Of a stretch of DNA of 10,942 nucleotides, positions 1,419-10,726 are shown one piece after another. The notes under the pieces were generated by a model. It did not search any database, was not told the origin of the DNA, and saw nothing but the letters and a program-made list of their open reading frames with translations. Each line of letters opens with the position of its first letter. The first letter of the stretch is position 1. This DNA comes from Candidatus Wukongarchaeum yapensis (GTDB lineage: Archaea > Asgardarchaeota > Wukongarchaeia > Wukongarchaeales > Wukongarchaeaceae), in contig JAEOSI010000057.1 in the NCBI GenBank assembly GCA_016840425.1, forward strand, positions 1 to 10,942, written 5' to 3'. Made by a program: the position numbers and the translations under genes.

Positions 1419-1452
1419 GAACCTCACTGCTTTAGCGGTGGGAGGAAGTTAG
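1419..1452 (+). repeat. IS200/IS605 right-end subterminal hairpin and terminus
   Basis: GAAC + CTCACTGC-TTTA-GCGGTGGG (8 bp including 2 G-T pairs) + AGGAAGTTAG. Resembles the common '...TTTAG...GGAGGA.GTCA' right ends of IS605/IS1341 elements. The exact end is uncertain by about 2 nt. Confidence 0.78.
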
Positions 1453-1455
1453 CTC

Positions 1456-1479
1456 GTATGACAAGAATCATACTTTTTT
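1456..1479 (+). terminator. Putative terminator (hairpin + T6) just outside the element right end
   Basis: GTATGA-caagaa-TCATAC (1456-1473) followed by TTTTTT (1474-1479). Confidence 0.4.
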
Positions 1480-1483
1480 ATGG

Positions 1484-1497
1484 GGAAACTTTTTAAA
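1484..1497 (+). promoter_or_regulatory. Possible BRE/TATA upstream of the prenyltransferase gene
   Basis: GGAAAC-TTTTTAAA resembles a purine-rich BRE plus TATA box; a second TATA-like motif (TAATATAATA) lies at 1551-1560. Confidence 0.33.
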
Positions 1498-1532
1498 GGG
1501 CTAGGTTTTTACACTTTTTGGCTTTAATCAAA

Positions 1533-1554
1533 ATTACCACTAATAAGTGGTAAT
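1533..1554. promoter_or_regulatory. Perfect 9-bp inverted repeat, candidate transcription-factor operator
   Basis: ATTACCACT-aata-AGTGGTAAT, overlapping the TATA-like motif at 1551-1560 upstream of the menA-like gene. Confidence 0.45.
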
Positions 1555-1581
1555 ATAATAGGAACTTTTCGGATAATCAAA

Positions 1582-2559
1582 ATGCCGATTGTACTGATCC
1601 ATATAGTGGGTTGGATCTTTATGCAAACGCCGTTTTTAACTTTAAGATCTCGATTTGTGATATGGTTAAAAGTGAGTCGTGCTAATTTTATTCCAGGAGC
1701 TCTTTTTCCATTCTTGGTTGGGAGTGTATTCGCTTGGTCTTTTGAAAACGCTTTTAGCTGGAGATTGTTAACCTTAGGCTTATTGGGGGTTTTCTTAACA
1801 ATCCTCGGTACAAATCTTTTAAACGAATACTATGATTATAAGAGCGGGGCGGATGTTTTAAACACAAGTTTTAACAAATTTTCAGGGGGTTCAAGAGTTC
1901 TTCCTGAAGGATTATTAGCACCCGAAAAAGTCGTTATAGTATCCCTAATATCTTTCTCCTTAGTTTTTTTAATAGCAATATACTTATCATATATTACAAC
2001 TTGGGTCTTGCTTCCTCTTGCAACTTTCGGCATTTTTAGTGGTGCATTTTATACAGCAAGCCCCATACAAACTGGTTATAAAGGTGTAGGAGAATTTTTC
2101 ATAGCTTTAAGTTTTGGCTGGTTATGTGTAACCTGTGGGTATATTGTACAAACAAGTTCTATTGCAGCTGAGCCCCAAATACTCTCCATACCATTGAGCA
2201 TTACTATTTTTCTAGTGATCCTAATAAACGAATTACCCGATTATCAAGCAGACAAAAAGGCGGGGAAAAACACCATGGTAGTAAAAATCGGCCCAGAAAA
2301 ATCAGCAAAAATCTATACTTTATTAACACTACTAGTTTACATATCAATCATCCTTATCACGTTGTTCTTATCGGCATTATCTCTACTTCTTGCCCTTCTT
2401 ACGTTACCCATTGCAATAAAATCAATACAAAATATAAAACTATACAAAGATCACGAAATCTTAGAAAAAACATGCGGAATGACCATCGGAATACATATAC
2501 TAACAAGTCTTCTCCTCATAATAGGTCTCGTAATCCACCAATATCAGTTAATACCCTGA
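1582..2559 (+). CDS. menA: UbiA-superfamily prenyltransferase, MenA/UBIAD1-like (1,4-dihydroxy-2-naphthoate polyprenyltransferase)
   Basis: Motifs NEYYDYKSGAD...GGSRVL and INELPDYQADKKAGKNTMVVKIG (the two Asp-rich motifs in MenA-type spacing); ~8-9 TM helices. The real start may be the ATG at 1621. Confidence 0.82.
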   Translation: MPIVLIHIVGWIFMQTPFLTLRSRFVIWLKVSRANFIPGALFPFLVGSVFAWSFENAFSWRLLTLGLLGVFLTILGTNLLNEYYDYKSGADVLNTSFNKFSGGSRVLPEGLLAPEKVVIVSLISFSLVFLIAIYLSYITTWVLLPLATFGIFSGAFYTASPIQTGYKGVGEFFIALSFGWLCVTCGYIVQTSSIAAEPQILSIPLSITIFLVILINELPDYQADKKAGKNTMVVKIGPEKSAKIYTLLTLLVYISIILITLFLSALSLLLALLTLPIAIKSIQNIKLYKDHEILEKTCGMTIGIHILTSLLLIIGLVIHQYQLIP

Positions 2560-2619
2560 TACTCTCTCAAAAACTCCCTTTTTTAAAAACAAAAAAATTA
2601 TAAAAAGATAAACATTAGC

Positions 2620-2826
2620 TTAACTTCTTTCTCCTTTATTTTTTCGATAAACATAAAAAAATAAAAGGTATAGAAAGCAGAAAATAATGCCAAAAATAAT
2701 AACTATGAATAATATCTCCTCAAGAGGGTTTACGTACTGTAAAAAACCGATAAAAATCAGACTGATAATCAACCAACCTATATACACTAACGGAGAATCT
2801 TCACTTTGCTCTAACTTCTCTAACAT
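2620..2826 (-). CDS. Small hypothetical membrane protein (68 aa, 2 TM helices, basic C-terminus)
   Basis: ATG at 2826 preceded by a GGTGA Shine-Dalgarno (reverse complement of TCACC, ~2837-2841); two hydrophobic helices. Confidence 0.68.
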   Translation of the reverse strand: MLEKLEQSEDSPLVYIGWLIISLIFIGFLQYVNPLEEILFIVIIFGIIFCFLYLLFFYVYRKNKGERS

Positions 2827-3002
2827 TTATCTGCTTTCACCAAGCAAAAAGGTCATTAGTATCTTTTCATTAATTCCAATAAAATTCTCAATAATGTTTT
2901 TGGGAGCCTTCTTATTCTTTTCTCCTTTCTTTTTTTAGTTTACTAATCGCATTCTATTTTTTGTTAATCTGCATCTGATGAGTTTAGTTATTTTTCCTTT
3001 CT

Positions 3003-3500
3003 TTAAGGATATTGTCTTCTTTTTTCGGTTTTTCTACGGCGTTTTGCTCTACCAGTCGATTCAGCTATGACTGCGAAAATCAAAAACAGAATAGGTGCCA
3101 AAATTATTAACATAAGAATCAATACTAGCAGTGGCACAGTCCAAGGAAGGAAAAATACGATCACAGAAAACAAAACTAGAATAAACAGAATAAAGATTAT
3201 CTGGCCCAAAATCCATCCGAAACCGCAAAGTGATGACTCTCCTTTCCGCGTTATTATTCTTCCAGTAGCCACGCCTTCATGCCACTTTTCAGCTGCAAGA
3301 GCCCTCAATTCAGCGCCACAATTTGAACAATATTCTGCGAAAACTTCCTCTTTTTTTCCGCAATATGGGCAAACTAAAAACTTCTTTTCACGTTCTTTTT
3401 TTTCTTTTCTTATTTTTGAAAGGTCTGCACCACAATGTTCGCAAAAATCATATCCCTCCCGTATGGCAGAACCGCAGAAAGGGCAGTAATAAATACTCAA
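3003..3500 (-). CDS. Double zinc-ribbon (DZR) membrane protein, 165 aa
   Basis: Four CxxC pairs (CPFC, CEHC, CPYC, CSNC), two TM helices and an R/K-rich tail. Start reassigned from 3608 to the TTG at 3500, which has a GAGGTG Shine-Dalgarno 7 nt upstream (3508-3513). Confidence 0.8.
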   Translation of the reverse strand: MSIYYCPFCGSAIREGYDFCEHCGADLSKIRKEKKEREKKFLVCPYCGKKEEVFAEYCSNCGAELRALAAEKWHEGVATGRIITRKGESSLCGFGWILGQIIFILFILVLFSVIVFFLPWTVPLLVLILMLIILAPILFLIFAVIAESTGRAKRRRKTEKRRQYP

Positions 3501-3569
3501 GCTAAAACACCTCTTAACAGGTGAAAAACAGTAAGAAATCAAATTTGTTCTTAAAATAAAATTAGCTAA

Positions 3570-3758
3570 ATAATATTTAATCCGTTCGGTGACCGAGCCC
3601 TTATGCATCTTGCAGACACGATTTTAAACTTTTATCTCATAAAGGATAGAGGCAACAATTACTTGACAAAGATCGAAAGTTTTGGTAGAAACTTAACAAA
3701 ACTATCATCGTTGCTGATGGAAATCGAAAACAACAAAATAAAAATAAGCGAACTCTAA
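3570..3758 (+). pseudogene. Possible fragment of a RecA/RadA/KaiC-superfamily ATPase C-terminus
   Basis: Open frame not in the ORF track: IIFNPFGDRALMHLADTILNFYLIKDRGNNYLTKIESFGRN...KISEL* (ATG at 3603 gives 51 aa). G-x-x-x-L-x-H-x-A-D-x-I-L resembles the late conserved motif of RecA-fold proteins. No Walker A/B is present and similarity is by eye only. Confidence 0.25.
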
Positions 3759-3865: not shown

Positions 3866-5281
3866 ATGATGCGTGTCATAGCTGATTTTCACGTTCATTC
3901 CCCTTATTCTCGAGCTACTTCTCAAAAAATAAGAATAAATGACCTTTATAGAAACGGTAAATTAAAGGGTTTAAACCTGATTGGTACCGGAGACGTTATC
4001 CACAAGGCTTGGAGAGAAGAACTGGAGAAAAGTCTCGATTTTTCAAAAGATTATGGTCTCTACTTATCTAAAAAAAGTCTACGTGAAGTTAACGATCAAA
4101 ACATCTTTTTTATACCTACCACTGAGGTAAACTGTATTTTCTCTAAAGAAGAGTTGAAAGATTCAAGTAAAAAGAGGAAGTCGAACAGGAAACAGATCCA
4201 TCATTTAATAATTATGCCTGATTTAAAGACTGCAGAAGAAGTTTCAAAAGTTTTATCAAAGTTTGGTAAAATGGATGCTGATGGCAGGCCGGACCTTCAT
4301 ATTTCCCCTGCAAAACTCGTAGAGATTCTTATGTCAATATCTTCAAACATCGTTATAGTGCCTGCTCACATCTGGACTCCTTGGTACTCTCTTTTCGGAG
4401 CTTTTAGCGGGTTTAACTCAATAGCTGAATGTTACGAAGACCAATTAAAACACATCTATGCTTTGGAAACAGGTTTGTCAAGCGATCCTCCGATGAATTG
4501 GCGTCTTAGTCAACTTGATGATTTTCTCCTTGTTTCGAACAGTGATGCTCACTCGGCTAATCCTTGGCGCCTTGGAAGAGAAGCCAACATTTTTGAACTT
4601 GAAGAGCTCTCTTGTGAAACCCTGATAAAAGCTTTAAAAAAACGGAGTTCAGAAGGGAAAAATAAGCTTTCAGCAACCATCGAAGTCTACCCAGACTTAG
4701 GAAAATATCATTACACAGGTCATAGAAAGTGCGGTGTAAACCTCTCTCCTGACGAAGCTTTAAAAATAGATAATAAATGCCCTGTATGCGGTCGTTCTCT
4801 GACCATTGGCGTCATGCAAAGAGTTGAACAACTGGCAGACCGCTCCCAAAAATTCACCCATAAAAATAAGCCTGGTTTCATTTCAACCCTCCCCCTCCAT
4901 GAAATTTTATCCACGGTTCACGGAATCACTACTTATCACTCAAAAACCCTTTGGAAAGCCTATTATGAGATAGTTGAAGCGACAGGTTCGGAATTCAACG
5001 CCCTAATATTTACGCCAGAAGAAGTTTTAGAAAAAACCGTTCCAAGAGAAGTTTTTAAAATGATAACAGCCCTAAGGAAGAATAAAATCAGGTTAAAACC
5101 AGGCTTCGACGGAGAATACGGAAAAATAATCACCGAGGAGAAAATGGGGGAAATTTATTCTCCCTCCCTTGAACAACAGAAAAAACAAAAACAACAACAA
5201 GAAATAAAAAAGAGTACCAAACCTGCTCCTAAAGAGTCAAAAAAGCATCAAAAATTAACCATTCTTGACGAGTTTCTCTAA
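3866..5281 (+). CDS. endoQ: Endonuclease Q family / PHP-domain DNA repair endonuclease (TIGR00375-like)
   Basis: N-terminal DFHVHSPYSRATS, GTGD, PAHIWTPW, ETGLSSD, SNSDAHS PHP motifs; Zn-finger GHRKC...CPVCG; PG(F)DGEYG near the C-terminus; Q/K-rich linker ending in LTILDEFL. Confidence 0.85.
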   Translation: MMRVIADFHVHSPYSRATSQKIRINDLYRNGKLKGLNLIGTGDVIHKAWREELEKSLDFSKDYGLYLSKKSLREVNDQNIFFIPTTEVNCIFSKEELKDSSKKRKSNRKQIHHLIIMPDLKTAEEVSKVLSKFGKMDADGRPDLHISPAKLVEILMSISSNIVIVPAHIWTPWYSLFGAFSGFNSIAECYEDQLKHIYALETGLSSDPPMNWRLSQLDDFLLVSNSDAHSANPWRLGREANIFELEELSCETLIKALKKRSSEGKNKLSATIEVYPDLGKYHYTGHRKCGVNLSPDEALKIDNKCPVCGRSLTIGVMQRVEQLADRSQKFTHKNKPGFISTLPLHEILSTVHGITTYHSKTLWKAYYEIVEATGSEFNALIFTPEEVLEKTVPREVFKMITALRKNKIRLKPGFDGEYGKIITEEKMGEIYSPSLEQQKKQKQQQEIKKSTKPAPKESKKHQKLTILDEFL

Positions 5282-5318: not shown

Positions 5319-6968
5319 TTATTTTCGTTTGTGTGTTTTGAATATGAATCGTGTGCACGTGTTTCTTATGCCTCTTACTGCTCTTATTTGTTCTAATATT
5401 CCGTTTATTTCGTTCATCGTGTTTCCGCTTAGAAGTGCTTCTATGTCGTATTGGCCTGATATTTCGTAAACACGGTATACTTGGGCGATTTTTGAGACAT
5501 TTCTTGCTATCCCTGTCGTGTATACGTTACTTTCACATTGGATGAGCATCAAAGCATTAATAGCGTTATCGTTAAAGCTTTTAAGCTGTCCGTTAATCTG
5601 TTTTAAAACTAAGCGCGTATCTGTGCGCTGAATACCCTTCTCGGCCCTTATCCTGTCAAGGATGGCGTTTAGTTCAGGCATGGAGGATGCTTTACAAAAC
5701 ATTTCGGCATCATACTCACCACTTATCTCATAAGCTGCTTGGATTGGATCTAAATCCGCTATTTTTTTGAGTATTTCCGCTGCTTGAACGCTTGCAAAAC
5801 ACTGCATCCTGACAATTGCCTCTACTTCTGTGGGTATCGTAGCGGTAAAACTCTGCCCCGTTATCCTCTCTGCAAGAATCACTAAATCAGGATCTTTAAG
5901 ATTTCTAAAGGCAGGATTCTCTTTAATCAGTTTTAAGATATCGCCCAACTGTTCCTCCGAAAGGTTTATTCCAGCCTTTTCAAGCTTAGCTTTCACAGCC
6001 TGTCTCCCTGCATATTTATCCACTATTATGTCCCTGTGTCTACCAATTAAGTCAGGGGGAAAAGCTTCATAAGTTCGAGGGTCTACAAGGACTGCTGCTG
6101 TGTGTAATCCTCCTTTATGACTGAACGCATTTTCCCCAATGACAGGTGTTTGAGCCGACAAAAGGATGCCGCTAAGCCTCTCAACGAGGAGGCTAGCCTC
6201 TGGAAGCTTTTCAAGGCTTATTTTTTCATGACCCAAATGAAGTCTAGCAACTACGGCAAAAGTGGAGAGATCGACGATCCCACAACGTTCCCCTAAATTG
6301 TTGCAAGTAACGTGAATACAGGTCGCCCCATTTCTTACGGCTTCTAAAGCATTAGCAACCGCCATACCTAAATCGTTATGAAAATGACCATCTAACTCCG
6401 CCTTAACCTTTTTAGAAAGGGTTTGAAATAAGGGTCCTACTTCGAAAGGCATCATGACACCTGCGGTATCTGGAACACTAATCCTCTCAGCCCCTGCATC
6501 GGCTGCAGCATTAGCAGCTCGTGCTAAGTAATCCACCTCTGTTCTTGAAGCGTCTTCACAAGTAAACCTCACCTTAAGCCCATGTTCTTTTGCATAAGTT
6601 ACTGCCTCTACCGCCATATTTATCACTCGTTCCTCTGTAAACTTCCGCGCCCTCCTATGAATATCACTTGTGGGTAAAAAGATGCCCACCCAGTCAACAT
6701 CACAAGAAAGGGCAAGATCTACGTCACTTTTTCTCGCCATACTGTGCGCAACTATCTCTGCTTCTAATCTTTCATCAGCCACTTTTTTAATGCCCTCTTT
6801 AACGTCGGGAGAAACAGCTGGATGACCCGCCTCAATCATATCTACTCCACATTCATCAAGAAGTCTCGCGATCTCAACCCGTTCATCAGGCGTAAAAGAA
6901 ACACCTGTTGTTTGTTCCCCTTCACGGAGCGTTGTTTCAAGAATCAACAGCTTTTTTTCGTCTTGCAT
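5319..6968 (-). CDS. Homocitrate synthase (DRE-TIM metallolyase, LeuA/HCS family) with two tandem C-terminal RAM (Lrp/AsnC ligand-binding) domains
   Basis: TTLREGEQ (R-E as in Thermus/Sulfolobus/fungal HCS rather than R-D of IPMS), EDASR, PDTAG, HFHND.G, GERCG, HKGGLH. No LeuA regulatory domain; instead two ~75-aa repeats each with YEISG[E/Q]YD. ATG at 6968 (GAGTGG SD) preferred over the GTG at 6980. Confidence 0.87.
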   Translation of the reverse strand: MQDEKKLLILETTLREGEQTTGVSFTPDERVEIARLLDECGVDMIEAGHPAVSPDVKEGIKKVADERLEAEIVAHSMARKSDVDLALSCDVDWVGIFLPTSDIHRRARKFTEERVINMAVEAVTYAKEHGLKVRFTCEDASRTEVDYLARAANAAADAGAERISVPDTAGVMMPFEVGPLFQTLSKKVKAELDGHFHNDLGMAVANALEAVRNGATCIHVTCNNLGERCGIVDLSTFAVVARLHLGHEKISLEKLPEASLLVERLSGILLSAQTPVIGENAFSHKGGLHTAAVLVDPRTYEAFPPDLIGRHRDIIVDKYAGRQAVKAKLEKAGINLSEEQLGDILKLIKENPAFRNLKDPDLVILAERITGQSFTATIPTEVEAIVRMQCFASVQAAEILKKIADLDPIQAAYEISGEYDAEMFCKASSMPELNAILDRIRAEKGIQRTDTRLVLKQINGQLKSFNDNAINALMLIQCESNVYTTGIARNVSKIAQVYRVYEISGQYDIEALLSGNTMNEINGILEQIRAVRGIRNTCTRFIFKTHKRK

Positions 6969-7150
6969 GGAAAAAACCACTCAAACAGCGTGTTTAACGC
7001 CTTTAAGTAGAAAATCCTTATTTTATAGAAAACAAAAAACGAGTTAGCTCCTTCCCATTTAAACTTTTTTTTCCATCTTTTCGTCATATTATTGGAGACC
7101 TCATACATGCCTAATATAATATTTTATTATTATAATACTATTTTTTATTT

Positions 7151-7681
7151 TTAGGGGGTTTTTATGTTTTCTCTGTATATTTCGTAAGCTATTTCGTTGA
7201 AAACGTTTTCCACATTTTTCCCTGTAAGAGAAGAGGTTTCAAAATAATTTTTTACCTTTAATTCTTCCTTTTTTTCTGTTACCATGTTTTCTGTTACTTG
7301 TATTTCATTCTCAAGGTCTGACTTTGTTCCCACTAAAACCACTGGGATATTACCCACATTTTCACTGACCAATTCCTGCCATTCTGAAAGACTTAAAAGC
7401 GTTCGCATACGGGTTAAATCAAAGGCAAGAACCGCTCCTTTAGCCCCTTTTATATAACGGTCAAACACTCCCATTGATTTGAACTGTTCTTGTCCTCCAA
7501 GATCCCAGATCTGTAGAGTAATCTCCTCATCTTCTATTTTTACTTTGTGCACATAAAAGGCTACGCCTAGAGTTATCAAGGTGTCGCCTATAAATTCACC
7601 GGTAAGAAAACGTTGTGTTAGTGTCGTTTTGCCAACACCACCTTCGCCAGCAATTACAACCTTATAGAGATTAAAAGACAA
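7151..7681 (-). CDS. Ras-superfamily small GTPase, Rab-like (Asgard type), 176 aa
   Basis: G1 GEGGVGKTT, G2 T(LG), G3 WDLGGQE, G4 TKSD, G5 ETSSL. TTG start with an AGGAG SD. Confidence 0.92.
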   Translation of the reverse strand: MSFNLYKVVIAGEGGVGKTTLTQRFLTGEFIGDTLITLGVAFYVHKVKIEDEEITLQIWDLGGQEQFKSMGVFDRYIKGAKGAVLAFDLTRMRTLLSLSEWQELVSENVGNIPVVLVGTKSDLENEIQVTENMVTEKKEELKVKNYFETSSLTGKNVENVFNEIAYEIYRENIKTP

Positions 7682-8050
7682 TTTTCTCCTTCCTATGGCG
7701 GTTTTTTCCTGTAAAACCCCTTTTATTACTGAACTAAACGATTCAATTATATATACAATTATTTTTAAGCATATTAAGTGTTTTTATGGAATTAAACAAG
7801 AATTCTATTTATTCTCAACATCGTCTAAGCAAAATTACGATATTTATAAGACTATGAAATTTTGTTCTTTTCTCCTTCCCGAATATCGCAATAAGACAAG
7901 AAAATATATATTTTTTAATCTCTATTTTTATACATAGGTTGAATATAATATAATTAAATTTTATAATAAAAACACTTTCTAAAAAATAAAATTATTTAGA
8001 AATAAATCAGGTATCTATGAGAAAAAGCAAAATAAGGAGGGAGTTAAAAA

Positions 8051-8608
8051 GTGCCTGAAAAAAATACGAAATCAAAACGTAAAAGCCGTAAAACATCTCA
8101 AGATAACTTTTTCACTCCCTGTGAAATTTTTTTTACGAGAAAAAAAAGAGAAAAAGATGTTTTTAGTTATCTTACAGGCGGTATAGATTGTAAGAAAAAA
8201 ATAGAAGGTATATGCCCTCTAAGAAAAAAAGGAAATAATGAACCGCCAAAGCTATCTCTAACCGAAGAATTTGATATCGTCATGCTCATTTCTAAGGACG
8301 GTATTCCCCTCTGGAAAAAAGAGTATAATAGCAACAAAAGGAAGAAAAAAGAGCTTATAGATCCTATCCAATTCACCATTTTTGCAGGAACTTTCTCAGC
8401 GATAAATGCAACCTTTTCTTCAGTAGTTGGAGACTCAATAGGTCTTGTGAAAAGTTCAAAAGGAAAAAGGCATTGGTTGATAAAAGATCTAGCCTCTTCA
8501 AACTGGCTCCTCATTGCTCAAACAAAATCATCAAAACCCACAACGAGCAAATTATTCGAACAAATGTGTAAAACAATCGAAAAATGCATAATTCATTCCA
8601 AAAAATAA
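8051..8608 (+). CDS. Longin/roadblock-like domain protein with a basic, Cys-containing N-terminal extension
   Basis: GTG start with AGGAGG SD. The C-terminal ~115 aa have a beta-beta-alpha-beta-beta-beta-alpha pattern (IVMLISKDGIPLW; FAGTFSAINATFSSVVG; IGLVKS; HWLIKD; WLLIAQT; SKLFEQMCKTIEK). Fold is inferred from the pattern only. Confidence 0.62.
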   Translation: MPEKNTKSKRKSRKTSQDNFFTPCEIFFTRKKREKDVFSYLTGGIDCKKKIEGICPLRKKGNNEPPKLSLTEEFDIVMLISKDGIPLWKKEYNSNKRKKKELIDPIQFTIFAGTFSAINATFSSVVGDSIGLVKSSKGKRHWLIKDLASSNWLLIAQTKSSKPTTSKLFEQMCKTIEKCIIHSKK

Positions 8609-8735: not shown

Positions 8736-9347
8736 TCATTCTTCCTTTTCTTTTTCAATTATTTTTGCTTCTAGTTCCCGGATTTTTTGCCAAAATCCGT
8801 CTATATCTATATCTTTTAACAAGAATAAAGCTTCTAAAATGTCGTCAGAAACTGTATCTTCATCAAAATTTGAAAAGGATGCGTAGTCTTCGATCTGTTT
8901 TTGGAAAATTTCAAATTCTTTTTTTATGCTTCCGATAACCTTATCGTAAGGCGATATTTTTTCTTTAACGATCCTCCTGTTTTTTTCAATTAAATCAATC
9001 AATTTCTCATAATCATGGGAAATTAACAATGCTCCAAGTTTTGCTTCTTCTACGTCTTGAGCTTGTTTCTCTATCCTGTCACAAGTATTCAAAAAATCTG
9101 TAAAAAGGTTAAACATCCTTTTTCTCATGCTAAAAACTTCTATTAAGGTTCTTAAAAGGTTTATGATAAGGGAAGTTGTTTTGTCTAAAGTTTTTTTGTA
9201 GTCATTAAAATCTTCAATTTTTTTACTTGTTGTTATCACGCTTGGAAAAAGATGAATCTCCATATCTAACGTTTTTAGTAGAAGGTAACGTATCATGCGA
9301 AACCCATTTTTTATCTCAAAAGTCTCCTCTTCCACAAGATTATGCAT
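8736..9347 (-). CDS. Hypothetical all-alpha-helical / coiled-coil protein, 203 aa
   Basis: ATG with GGGGGA SD; amphipathic heptad-like helices rich in E/K/L/I; no recognisable motif. Confidence 0.75.
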   Translation of the reverse strand: MHNLVEEETFEIKNGFRMIRYLLLKTLDMEIHLFPSVITTSKKIEDFNDYKKTLDKTTSLIINLLRTLIEVFSMRKRMFNLFTDFLNTCDRIEKQAQDVEEAKLGALLISHDYEKLIDLIEKNRRIVKEKISPYDKVIGSIKKEFEIFQKQIEDYASFSNFDEDTVSDDILEALFLLKDIDIDGFWQKIRELEAKIIEKEKEE

Positions 9348-9508: not shown

Positions 9509-10726
9509 GTGGGTAAAAACCAAGACGAAGAAGAAGGAAATTTGAGCCATAATACAAAAGCGGTGATATCCTTAGATGAGAGGTTTGTTATGCAGACTTA
9601 CAGTCGTTTTCCGGTAGTTCCTGTGAGGGCGAAAGGGGTCAAGGTTTGGGATTGTGATGGAAAGGAGTATATTGATTGTGTTTCAGGGATTGCTGTTTTA
9701 AATGTTGGTCATCGTCATCCGCGTATCCTTAAAGTACTAAAAGAACAGGCAGAGCAACTTATGCATATCTCAAACCATTTCTACATCGAGCAGCAAGCAA
9801 AAGCAAGCGAATACTTGGCAAAAATAGCTCCAAAACCGCTTGAAAAAACGTTTTGGGGAAACAGTGGCACAGAGGCGGTAGAAGCAGCGCTTAAGCTCGC
9901 CATAAAGTACACAGGAAAACACGAGTTTATCGCGGCTCAAGGAAGTTTCCACGGAAGAACTATGGGTGCATTAGCCACAACATGGAACGAACATTACCGG
10001 GCTCCCTACGCTCCTTTCGGAATTAACGCTAAGTTTGTTCCCTTCAACGATTTACAAGCGATAAAAGAAGCAGTCTCAAAGGATACTGCAGGAATAATTC
10101 TTGAACCCGTACAAGGGCAAGGAGGCGTCAATATACCCTCAAATGGTTACCTAGAAGCAGTAAGAGAACTCTGTGATGAGAAAGAAATACTGCTCATTTT
10201 TGATGAAGTGCAGACAGGGTTCGGACGCACAGGCAAACTTTGGGCAGGAGAACACTGGAACGTTGTCCCAGACATAATGCCACTTGCTAAAGCTTTAGGA
10301 GGAGGAATATCTTCTGGAGCCTGCATCGCAAAAGAAGAGATCGCAAAAGCTTTCGATCACGGCGCCCACGGAACAACTTTTGGCGGAAACCCACTGGCTT
10401 GCGCCTTATCCCTTGAAGCCATGAAGATCGTTGTCGAAGAAAACCTATCTGAAAGAGCCGCTGAACTGGGTAAAAAAGCCGTTAAACAACTAAAAGAGCT
10501 TAAGGAAGACTTAGAAATTATAAAAGATGTGCGTGGAATAGGACTACTTATCGGCATAGAAGTTTCTAAAGACGCAAAAAAACTGTGTTTAGAAATGATT
10601 AAGAAAGGCATTTTAATCACATACACAGCAGAAAAAGTCATAAGAGTCATACCTCCCCTCGTAATAAAAGAAGAAGAACTTGAAAAAGCTTTAAACATCA
10701 TAGCGGAAGGTTTTAAGCAACATTAG
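9509..10726 (+). CDS. lysJ: Class-III PLP aminotransferase, [LysW]-aminoadipate semialdehyde / acetylornithine aminotransferase (LysJ/ArgD)
   Basis: NSGTEAVEAALK, SFHGRT, FDEVQTG, AKALGGG (PLP lysine), TTFGGNPLAC. TTWNEHYR resembles the 'TW..KYR' of LysJ rather than ArgD, and HCS is nearby. GTG start with GGAGG SD. The lysJ versus argD call is moderately certain. Confidence 0.85.
   Translation: MGKNQDEEEGNLSHNTKAVISLDERFVMQTYSRFPVVPVRAKGVKVWDCDGKEYIDCVSGIAVLNVGHRHPRILKVLKEQAEQLMHISNHFYIEQQAKASEYLAKIAPKPLEKTFWGNSGTEAVEAALKLAIKYTGKHEFIAAQGSFHGRTMGALATTWNEHYRAPYAPFGINAKFVPFNDLQAIKEAVSKDTAGIILEPVQGQGGVNIPSNGYLEAVRELCDEKEILLIFDEVQTGFGRTGKLWAGEHWNVVPDIMPLAKALGGGISSGACIAKEEIAKAFDHGAHGTTFGGNPLACALSLEAMKIVVEENLSERAAELGKKAVKQLKELKEDLEIIKDVRGIGLLIGIEVSKDAKKLCLEMIKKGILITYTAEKVIRVIPPLVIKEEELEKALNIIAEGFKQH

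Follow-up and report, generated by a model that had tools for sequence, protein, structure and literature searches.

The window (the whole stretch of DNA analysed, 10,942 nucleotides) carries a head-to-head gene pair that encodes a small GTPase of Rab-like type together with a strongly basic sequence orphan, the C-terminal domain of which likely folds, according to structure models, into a roadblock-type (MglB/LAMTOR-like) sandwich. The identities of both genes are well supported and the modelled roadblock fold is moderately supported. A cognate GTPase-regulator module is hypothesized from the adjacency alone; the pairing and a role at the membrane we infer. Our overall explanation, a Rab-like GTPase and a roadblock-like basic partner acting together, is held tentatively and placed below an even chance, about level with its main rival, an incidental adjacency. 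The features of the locus are:

7151..7681, minus strand: Rab-like small GTPase, 176 aa, TTG start
7682..8050, no strand: divergent spacer common to both genes, 369 bp, 23.0 % GC
8051..8608, plus strand: orphan gene, 185 aa, GTG start, stop codon at 8606-8608
8051..8260, plus strand: N-terminal extension of the orphan, residues 1-70, polybasic tail with a conserved NFFTPCEIFF segment
8261..8608, plus strand: predicted roadblock-like alpha/beta sandwich, orphan residues ~71-185, from AF2, Foldseek and VIA-align
8736-9347: third gene, 203-aa helical protein, no DENN or other Pfam match

In the ORF list of the window the pair occupies 7151-7681(-) and 8051-8608(+), coordinates identical to those of the preliminary description, which had also noted head-to-head genes with a very AT-rich spacer of ~370 bp; the values of 369 bp and 23.0 % GC confirmed this. 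The GC content was 37.4 % for the window, 37.5 % for the GTPase gene and 33.5 % for the orphan gene. Because the remaining intergenic stretches of the window are AT-rich too (26-29 %), the low GC content is ordinary for spacers here and not special. Shine-Dalgarno-like purine runs were read off the sequence for both genes, AAGGAGG about 9 nt upstream of the GTG at 8051 and GGAAGGAGA upstream of the TTG at 7681. TATA-like A/T blocks at ~7736-7768 and ~7880-7919, a promoter reading by eye, were kept in three lineages. Aligned with the sister lineages L002 and L049, the spacer had a mean column identity of 81 % two-way and 77 % three-way, and a segment of ~110 bp present in both sisters was missing from the window. 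The seven indels listed among environmental strains (four runs) were confined to spacers, six of them to 7682-8050, and the orphan gene was free of them. For an ORF within the spacer (7695-7937, plus strand), which spans the site of the ~110-bp indel, the ORF lists of L002 and L049 contained nothing corresponding. Scans of the window for sigma-70 promoters and terminators, which are not relevant to archaea, did not exceed shuffles, and Rfam and tRNA scans gave nothing at threshold. RNA-library coverage consisted of one contig (268 nt, depth 2) over 7148-7326, the 3' end of the GTPase gene, with none on the orphan.

The gene on the minus strand belongs to the Asgard Rab-like small GTPases as a lineage-specific paralog; its catalytic motif set is complete, and a lipid-anchor cysteine is missing. 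Its product matched Pfam Ras (PF00071) at 1.5e-40 (138.9 bits for a cut-off of 21.6, covering residues 7-169 of 176) and TIGR00231 small_GTP with 80.5 bits. The best PDB sequence matches were Rab11 (2.8e-28) and then a Thorarchaeota Rab (Thor-Rab 7ezb, 8.5e-28), so the earlier naming as a Rab-like GTPase was borne out. Small GTPases are characterized by the motifs G1 (GxxxxGK[ST]), a switch-I threonine, G3 (DxxGQ), G4 ([NT]KxD) and G5 (S-A/S-x); the translation contains the P-loop GEGGVGKT, switch-I T37, DLGGQ, TKSD and ETSS, and K18, T19, T37, D60, G63, K120, D122 and S150 were invariant in an alignment of 52 sequences. Compared with L002, the gene had a dN/dS of 0.24. The protein ends with YRENIKTP and has zero cysteines in its whole length, hence it lacks the geranylgeranylation cysteine motif of eukaryotic Rab proteins. 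An account of Asgard Rabs likewise describes them as free of lipidation and of a C-terminal cysteine (PMC10933270). The clade of this GTPase comprises the gene itself and P0006-P0011, with the C186 type (56 % identical) as sister clade. The contig with the C186-type sister paralog stops 21 bp beyond that gene, and C186-type orthologs were absent from 201 genomes of the phylum at E<=1e-50, the sole other match being a C12-type gene of G001.

The gene on the plus strand codes for a fast-evolving, genus-restricted, strongly basic protein of 185 aa, by its sequence an orphan limited to one Hodarchaeota-like genus. A word-indexed search returned full-length homologues, 94-73 % identical, in five clusters (5 matches from 81 candidates), and the orphan profile recovered solely its own cluster among 1.84 billion representatives. 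Pattern searches led to one locus in genome contigs (from 320 matches) and two loci in metagenome contigs (from 572 matches); the gene was present in two of 41 genomes of relatives, the window's own genome included. A sensitive search for paralogs among the ORFs of the same genome gave nothing under E 0.2, and the profile had no match among PDB sequences at E<=10. Pfam and NCBIfam yielded no relevant family; the only Pfam match, Borrelia P66, was disregarded at 16.2 bits for a cut-off of 25.2. AT-rich DNA yields lysine-rich chance ORFs, and a protein with no family match might come from such a non-coding open frame at 8051-8608. This origin has next to no probability and is effectively refuted: besides the full-length homologues and the restriction of strain indels to spacers, the orphan had a dN/dS of 0.34 over 187 aligned codons to L002, that is purifying selection, and its start codons (GTG in the window, ATG in L002, TTG in L049) fell into one aligned column, preceded by a conserved purine-rich, Shine-Dalgarno-like stretch in the three-lineage alignment. 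The antisense ORF 8167-8514(-) was absent from the ORF lists of both sister loci.

Residues 1-70 of the orphan contain 19 K/R, 8 D/E and 3 Cys and had a dN/dS of 0.38 in comparison to L002. C24, C47 and C55 were invariant in all six sequences, as were C173 and C179 further downstream. The extra, K/R-rich and cysteine-containing N-terminus of ~70 aa in the preliminary description was thus found as described. In the AF2 model the extension is largely disordered, apart from a short helix at residues 23-27.

For residues ~71-185, AF2 predicted a beta-beta-alpha-beta-beta-beta-alpha topology (beta 74-81, beta 86-91, helix 107-125, beta 131-134, beta 141-146, beta 152-158, helix 163-179), identical in two separate runs on the full length and on residues 64-185. 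The mean pLDDT of the two models was 58.5 and 63.8, a low confidence; the other four models of the first run scored 37-41 and the central helix of the second model 37-47. The dN/dS of this part was 0.31. Foldseek searches of the two models against the PDB retrieved 4 and 13 matches at E<=1e-3, mostly MglB/MglC, LAMTOR/Ego3, Rag C-terminal domains and solved Asgard roadblocks. With MglB, LAMTOR/Ego and Asgard roadblocks on top (best E 2.6e-4), the Foldseek search of 8051-8608 proposed in the preliminary description favoured a roadblock-like fold. In a VIA search against 48,161 chains the domain aligned to a LAMTOR-like chain with Z 10.3 (rmsd 3.4, 114 aligned residues), to MglB with 9.8 and 9.2, to MK-D1 Roadblock3 with 8.9 and to Thor-RB with 8.2; the full-length model reached only Z 7.3, and Z values of 7-8 are frequent for models that have no true match. 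In both low-confidence models five antiparallel strands form the sheet and a single long helix sits between the second and the third, which is the roadblock layout. Of the flanking helices, the C-terminal one (163-179) is present, and the N-terminal side has only the five-residue helix 23-27 (pLDDT ~55), 45 residues before strand 1. A protein language model gave a lead from the orphan to the Asgard clusters 'Roadblock/LAMTOR2' and 'Fuz longin' (0.85-0.86).

The HHpred-type search proposed alongside Foldseek failed to recover the family: hhalign of the orphan against 12 roadblock ORFs of its own genome gave a probability of 1.6 %, with a beta1-beta2 hairpin in register with these proteins that was not significant, and Pfam, NCBIfam and PDB sequences gave no relevant match. 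Robl_LC7 (PF03259) did not match any of the six orphan homologues at E<=10, and the 14 matches of a genome scan at E<=1 did not include the orphan gene. In a fold comparison, longins lack a helix at the N-terminus and carry two successive ones at the C-terminus after strand 5 (PMC10933270). The orphan has a single C-terminal helix (163-179) with 6 residues beyond, longin chains ranked below roadblock chains (synbindin Z 8.4 and VAMP7 Z 7.2, top Z 10.3) and the longin Pfam families did not match; a classical longin was rejected. Of the 'longin/roadblock-like' protein of the preliminary description, roadblock therefore stands at the level of the fold, in two low-confidence models, but neither the classical longin nor any sequence signal does.

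The orphan could instead be no roadblock homologue but a small, highly basic protein whose two-layer alpha/beta sandwich is a generic one (profilin/GAF-like or none) and which would bind nucleic acid or ribonucleoprotein via its lysine-rich surface and possibly metal via the five invariant cysteines. We regard this as unlikely. It would agree with the high pI of 9.87, also seen for residues 71-185 alone (9.7), with the missing roadblock signal in the sequence, with the low confidence of the AF2 models and with profilin, GAF and longin chains within ~2 Z units of the top (profilin 8.4, the longin synbindin 8.4, GAF 8.3). However, roadblock-family chains ranked first in four structure searches on the two models, and the uninterrupted central helix of ~19-21 residues suits a roadblock or longin, not a profilin, by the fold comparison in PMC10933270. 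Six of eight canonical roadblock ORFs of the genome have a pI of 4.5-6.2, but the other two are basic (9.1 and 9.4). The orphan sequence lacks CxxC and CxxH pairs, which makes a classical zinc finger unlikely.

Even with a roadblock fold, the place of the orphan beside the Rab-like gene may be incidental; the protein would then serve another of the many small GTPases of the genome or be a GTPase-independent dimeric adaptor, and the Rab-like neighbour would be regulated by unlinked factors. This is a strong contender, below an even chance and about as probable as the two acting together. The genome has 24 Ras-family and 14 Robl_LC7 matches (23 and 8 over the cut-off), therefore some adjacency by chance is expected, as a rough estimate rather than a computed one. 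A scan of 23 genes next to 14 further Rab-like paralogs of the genome showed not one roadblock or longin gene; these neighbours were GrpE, HEAT-repeat, CDP-alcohol transferase, TnpB-like, transposase and similar genes. For strain MK-D1, the GTPase genes are reported to lie generally outside operons with RB or longin regulators (Tran et al. 2024, PMC10933270), and roadblock proteins are described as spread widely among prokaryotes and diverse in role (PMC12962969). Furthermore, the two genes are divergent and not co-transcribed. The one canonical roadblock-GTPase cluster of the genome (C125) is co-directional and Pfam-detectable. On the other side, GTPase and orphan share a narrow distribution: both were found solely in one genus-level group and were neighbours in every contig holding either gene with enough flank. 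They adjoin each other in the window, in L002 and L049, and on a contig of 6,063 nt from run X8. The GTPase as a lineage-specific paralog also fits a newly born partner. A check of the synteny was advised in the preliminary description. Three lineages of the genus retain the pair, but they also retain the entire neighbourhood of ~10 kb, from a UbiA-like or PHP-like gene to an aminotransferase and beyond, and because of this colinearity the synteny is uninformative on the pairing.

On one side of the pair lies a homocitrate synthase bearing lysine-sensor-type RAM domains, on the other the gene of the 203-aa helical protein and the LysJ/LysK genes of the lysine pathway. The 203-aa neighbour was rejected as a third partner; its weak full-length relatives (20-24 % identity) occurred in three other genomes of 201, with no GTPase or roadblock gene within ~1.5 kb. 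A DENN domain (PF02141) was not matched at E<=1 in the 92 %-complete genome.

Roadblock proteins bind small GTPases, as in MglB-MglA and Ragulator-Rag. If the orphan and the Rab-like GTPase act together, the roadblock-like domain would dimerise via the central helix and the sheet edge, by analogy to solved roadblock proteins, and the dimer could be a platform that binds the adjacent GTPase in one nucleotide state. It may be a GAP, as MglB is, or a scaffold or GEF in the manner of Ragulator. The polybasic N-terminal tail would keep the complex at an anionic surface, a membrane being the most plausible one, and supply the anchoring absent from the unlipidated GTPase; both genes would be co-regulated from the divergent spacer. 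Fusions of RB domains and GTPases occur in Asgard archaea (PMC10933270). A bolder version, which we consider very doubtful, sees the newly born roadblock-fold orphan with its polybasic tail and cysteine cluster as the dedicated partner of a young Rab-like paralog, forming between the homocitrate synthase and LysJ/LysK a primitive amino-acid-linked GTPase switch, a minimal Rag-Ragulator analogue of independent origin in one Asgard genus.

Asgard genomes encode dozens of small GTPases as well as roadblock and longin proteins. Gene order in this group hardly ever tells which GTPase a regulator belongs to, according to one account (Tran et al. 2024, PMC10933270). A stand-alone Rab-like GTPase kept beside a roadblock-like gene is a cheap and concrete candidate for in vitro testing, and the polybasic tail suggests one route of an unlipidated archaeal Rab to the membrane. 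The components are of kinds already described, and GTPase and roadblock-like orphan add one more candidate pair of a sort known as common in Asgard archaea; the value lies in a bench candidate, not in a discovery.

Among known systems, MglA-MglB of bacteria and archaea (a Ras-like GTPase with a roadblock-fold GAP; PDB 3t12, 6izw, 6h5b) also has a small stand-alone roadblock-type protein encoded beside a small GTPase, and MglB was among the best structural matches of the orphan (Z 9.8 and 9.2, Foldseek E ~1e-3). A basic membrane-facing patch is attributed to MglB (PMC10933270). Unlike MglA, the GTPase in the window is Rab-like with DLGGQ in switch II, and the genome's own MglA-like gene lies between roadblock genes on C125. 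The genes of the candidate pair here are divergent rather than co-directional; in contrast to MglB, the orphan has no Pfam Robl_LC7 signal and carries the additional 70-aa polybasic, cysteine-bearing extension. From the Ragulator/EGO complexes (LAMTOR2/3/4/5, Ego3/Gse1) came the top structural match, 8fw5_G, a LAMTOR-like chain of the S. pombe Gtr-Lam complex (Z 10.3), and LAMTOR and Ego3 chains led the Foldseek list. The concept in common would be a roadblock platform tethering an unlipidated GTPase to a membrane; however, the likeness of the orphan is at the level of the fold only (9-16 % identity), and the locus has neither a Rag-type GTPase that carries a roadblock domain of its own at the C-terminus nor an identified LAMTOR1-like wrapping subunit. 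The solved Asgard roadblocks (Thor-RB 7f8m; MK-D1 RB 7yh1, 9jq8, 9jue) and Thor-Rab 7ezb, as presented by Tran et al. (2024, PMC10933270), share the organism group and both kinds of protein, but the solved roadblocks can be recognised from their sequence and possess a complete helix at the N-terminus, where the sequence orphan has only the short low-confidence helix 23-27. Comparable too is an Asgard operon predicted by Liu et al. (bioRxiv 10.1101/2020.10.19.343400), in which a LAMTOR1-like roadblock-superfamily protein is combined with a Rab-like GTPase and a DENN protein. There as here, going by the description of that operon, a roadblock-superfamily gene adjoins a Rab-like and not a Rag-like GTPase in an Asgard genome, whereas the pair in the window has no adjacent DENN gene, is divergently oriented and belongs to one genus rather than to most Asgard archaea.

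Gene order on contig C12, which forms the window in a genome of 2.16 Mb (277 contigs, 92 % complete), matches the head-to-head arrangement of the preliminary description exactly. The nearest named relatives of the window are MAGs designated "Candidatus Hodarchaeota archaeon", which places it among the Asgard archaea. The ORF list gives the pair as follows:

7151–7681, minus strand, Rab-like GTPase of 176 aa with TTG start
8051–8608, plus strand, divergent partner of 185 aa with GTG start, here called the orphan

The shared spacer is AT-rich as described (369 bp, 23.0 % GC versus 37.4 % for the window), but its low GC content is ordinary intergenic composition here, since the remaining spacers have 26–29 % GC. 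Shine-Dalgarno-like purine-rich runs lie ahead of both starts. The spacer (7682–8050) has a column identity of 77–81 %, near the conservation of the genes, with two strongly conserved A/T-rich blocks (~7736–7768 and ~7880–7919); a segment of ~110 bp present in both sister loci, L002 and L049, is missing from the window.

The assignment of the first gene as Rab-like GTPase is well supported by a Pfam Ras match (1.5e-40, 138.9 bits, cut-off 21.6), by the top PDB sequence matches, Rab11 (2.8e-28) and the solved Thorarchaeota Rab (8.5e-28) followed by many Rabs, and by the motifs GEGGVGKT, switch-I threonine, DLGGQ, TKSD and ETSS in the translation. Weaker matches were to Roc and Arf in Pfam and to TIGR00231. 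Key residues are invariant in an alignment of 52 sequences. The protein contains no cysteine and therefore no prenylation motif, a lack also reported for Asgard Rabs by Tran et al. (PMC10933270). Ras-family matches in the genome numbered 24, 23 of them above the cut-off. In a midpoint-rooted FastTree phylogeny (16 own paralogs, 51 database homologues, 177 columns) the GTPase clustered with the homologues P0006–P0011 (94–67 % identity), and the sister clade held a paralog on contig C186 (56 % identity) with P0012–P0015; by this grouping the GTPase is a lineage-specific paralog. The neighbourhood of the C186 paralog is cut off by the contig end, and the 201 genomes searched contained no ortholog of it.

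The orphan is a real gene and its N-terminal extension is translated. Five database homologues (73–94 % identity, 183–187 aa) align with conservation from residue 4 on, including C24, C47, C55, C173 and C179. Relative to L002, dN/dS was 0.34 overall, 0.38 for residues 1–70 and 0.31 for residues 71–185, compared with 0.24 for the GTPase, 0.17 for the 203-aa neighbour, which is under the strongest constraint among the three small genes, and 0.135 for homocitrate synthase. The window, L002 and L049 start the gene with GTG, ATG and TTG, respectively; the three codons share one column of the alignment, and a purine-rich run resembling a Shine-Dalgarno site is conserved ahead of it. All seven indels listed from contigs of four public runs fall into non-coding spacers, none into the GTPase or the orphan; an antisense ORF and an 80-aa spacer ORF have no counterpart in the sister loci. 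The extra K/R-rich, Cys-bearing N-terminus proposed earlier was found as such, with 19 K/R among residues 1–70 and C24, C47 and C55 conserved. A classical zinc finger is unlikely because none of the five invariant cysteines stands at CxxC spacing.

Sequence relatives beyond these homologues were scarce. Pfam, NCBIfam and PDB sequences gave no match, a profile run against 1.84 billion representatives recovered the orphan's own cluster and no other, and the own genome yielded no paralog. Two of 41 related genomes carry the gene, the own genome counted, both of one genus; genome and metagenome contig scans added only the loci L002, L048 and L049. The class-level comparison set comprised three genomes. 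A Robl_LC7 scan of the own genome gave 14 matches at E<=1, none of the 14 at the orphan and eight of them above the cut-off. When the orphan was compared by hhalign with 12 own roadblock ORFs, nothing beyond the strand1–strand2 hairpin could be aligned, in the expected register but at 1.6 % probability. The full-length AlphaFold2 model (6-row alignment; mean pLDDT 58.5, pTM 0.60; other four models 37–41) predicts the following elements:

residues 23–27, short helix
residues 74–81 and 86–91, strands
residues 107–125, central helix
residues 131–134, 141–146 and 152–158, strands
residues 163–179, C-terminal helix

Residues 64–185 alone gave the same topology (pLDDT 63.8, pTM 0.62; other models 61.9, 58.0, 56.8 and 46.2), with a pLDDT of just 37–47 in the central helix. 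Foldseek against PDB at E<=1e-3 returned four matches for the full-length model and 13 for the isolated domain, headed by MglC, LAMTOR subunits, Ego3, MglB, Rag C-terminal domains, dynein LC7 and solved Asgard roadblocks (TM 0.47–0.60). A structure search independent of Foldseek (VIA) over 48,161 chains reached a best Z of 7.3 with the full-length model; the isolated domain matched LAMTOR-like 8fw5_G (10.3), MglB (9.8 and 9.2), Gse1 and Roadblock3 of the Asgard archaeon MK-D1 (both 8.9), profilins and the longin synbindin (both 8.4), GAF domains (8.3) and the VAMP7 longin (7.2). A protein-language-model look-up pointed, as a lead only, to Asgard "Roadblock/LAMTOR2" and "Fuz longin" clusters (0.85–0.86). 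According to Tran et al. (PMC10933270), longins lack the N-terminal helix and have two C-terminal helices, and in profilin strands replace half of the central helix; the orphan model has one C-terminal helix followed by six residues, a long central helix and an N-terminal helix that is at best vestigial. Its topology thus fits the roadblock description. Of the earlier longin/roadblock-like claim the roadblock part is supported at fold level by two low-confidence models; a classical longin layout is contradicted by the single C-terminal helix, and longins rank below the top matches. Judged by the models, the orphan quite probably has a roadblock-superfamily fold, and would be a very divergent roadblock-like protein with an unusual N-extension. 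A basic protein of another, non-roadblock kind is an unlikely alternative, as both structure searches are led by roadblock-type proteins.

A lysine (aminoadipate/LysW-type) biosynthesis neighbourhood surrounds the pair and the adjoining 203-aa gene; its members are the homocitrate synthase, the aminotransferase and, in the sister loci, the LysK-like deacylase. The genes listed around the pair are:

3003–3608, minus strand, protein with two zinc ribbons and a probable membrane segment at its C-terminus
3866–5281, plus strand, 471-aa PHP-like protein (TIGR00375 220.5 bits, below the cut-off of 326.6; weak PHP_C)
5319–6980, minus strand, homocitrate synthase (TIGR02146 416 bits, cut-off 413.55)
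8736–9347, minus strand, 203-aa protein with no family match
9509–10726, plus strand, ArgD/LysJ-family aminotransferase (TIGR00707 above cut-off)
L002 7535–8524, minus strand, LysK-like deacylase of the sister loci (TIGR01902 above cut-off)

The homocitrate synthase ends in two RAM/LysM-like ligand-binding domains. The 471-aa protein has a lysine/glutamine-rich tail and is divergent from the zinc-ribbon gene; the sister loci keep both. Weak full-length relatives of the 203-aa protein (20–24 % identity, 196–203 aa) occur in three other Asgard genomes of 201 searched, where no GTPase or roadblock gene lies beside them. An ORF-poor, GC-rich island (1057–1452, ~49–50 %) gave nothing at gathering score in Rfam scans (best HgcC, 15 bits versus 50).

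The cognate GTPase-regulator module of the preliminary description has its weak point in the coupling of the two proteins. Synteny, named there as a check, was preserved in L002 (76 % identity), in L049 (73 %) and on a contig of run X8 that is 6 kb long. Yet every one of these carriers keeps the entire neighbourhood in the same order (zinc-ribbon membrane protein, PHP-like protein, homocitrate synthase, GTPase, orphan, 203-aa protein, ArgD/LysJ-type aminotransferase, DUF429, LysK-like hydrolase), hence the conserved adjacency adds no independent weight. Around 17 Rab-like genes of the genome 58 flanking ORFs were surveyed; 31 were complete within the retrieved loci, and after exclusion of five GTPases themselves and three short ORFs (73–85 aa, two overlapping larger genes) 23 were scanned. 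None belonged to a roadblock or longin family, and 8 of the 23 had no match at all. A 407-aa protein adjoining tandem GTPases matched V4R (27 bits versus 31) and TRAPP (22.3 versus 27) below cut-off and is possibly, from its sequence, a TRAPPC3-like neighbour:

contig C127, 1–1226 (minus), 1440–2054 (plus) and 2287–2841 (plus), tandem Rab-like GTPases and the 407-aa protein (profile matches)

It is quite conceivable that the orphan is roadblock-like and serves a partner unrelated to the adjoining GTPase. A direct functional pair is a tentative reading; it draws on the narrow distribution that both genes share, on their lasting adjacency, on the fold and on precedent. In such a pair, a roadblock-type dimer of the orphan would form a platform for the unlipidated Rab-like GTPase, and the polybasic tail might provide electrostatic membrane attachment; the whole protein has a pI of 9.87, versus 4.5–6.2 for six of eight canonical roadblock ORFs of the genome. 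Rab-like GTPases and roadblock proteins are both abundant and already described in Asgard archaea; in the titles, abstracts and accessible portions of the structural and comparative papers, no stand-alone Asgard Rab-like GTPase is matched biochemically with a roadblock protein. The main use of the pair is as a candidate for the bench.

Precedents for coupling are MglB-MglA, Ragulator-Rag and the roadblock-GTPase fusions of MK-D1 (PMC10933270), and a predicted Asgard operon of roadblock, Rab-like and DENN genes (bioRxiv 10.1101/2020.10.19.343400); that operon includes DENN, whereas the genome of the window has no DENN match. A canonical cluster is present on contig C125:

9388–9759, plus strand, roadblock gene divergent from the MglA-like GTPase
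9902–10492, minus strand, MglA-like GTPase
10588–11058, minus strand, roadblock gene directly upstream of the GTPase

Two more roadblock-like matches ~3 kb off (13371–14259, one above cut-off, one weak) are separated from this cluster by transposase-like ORFs. The window pair differs from this layout, in which the roadblock gene and the MglA-like GTPase are co-directional, more roadblock genes lie around them and all are detectable with Pfam.
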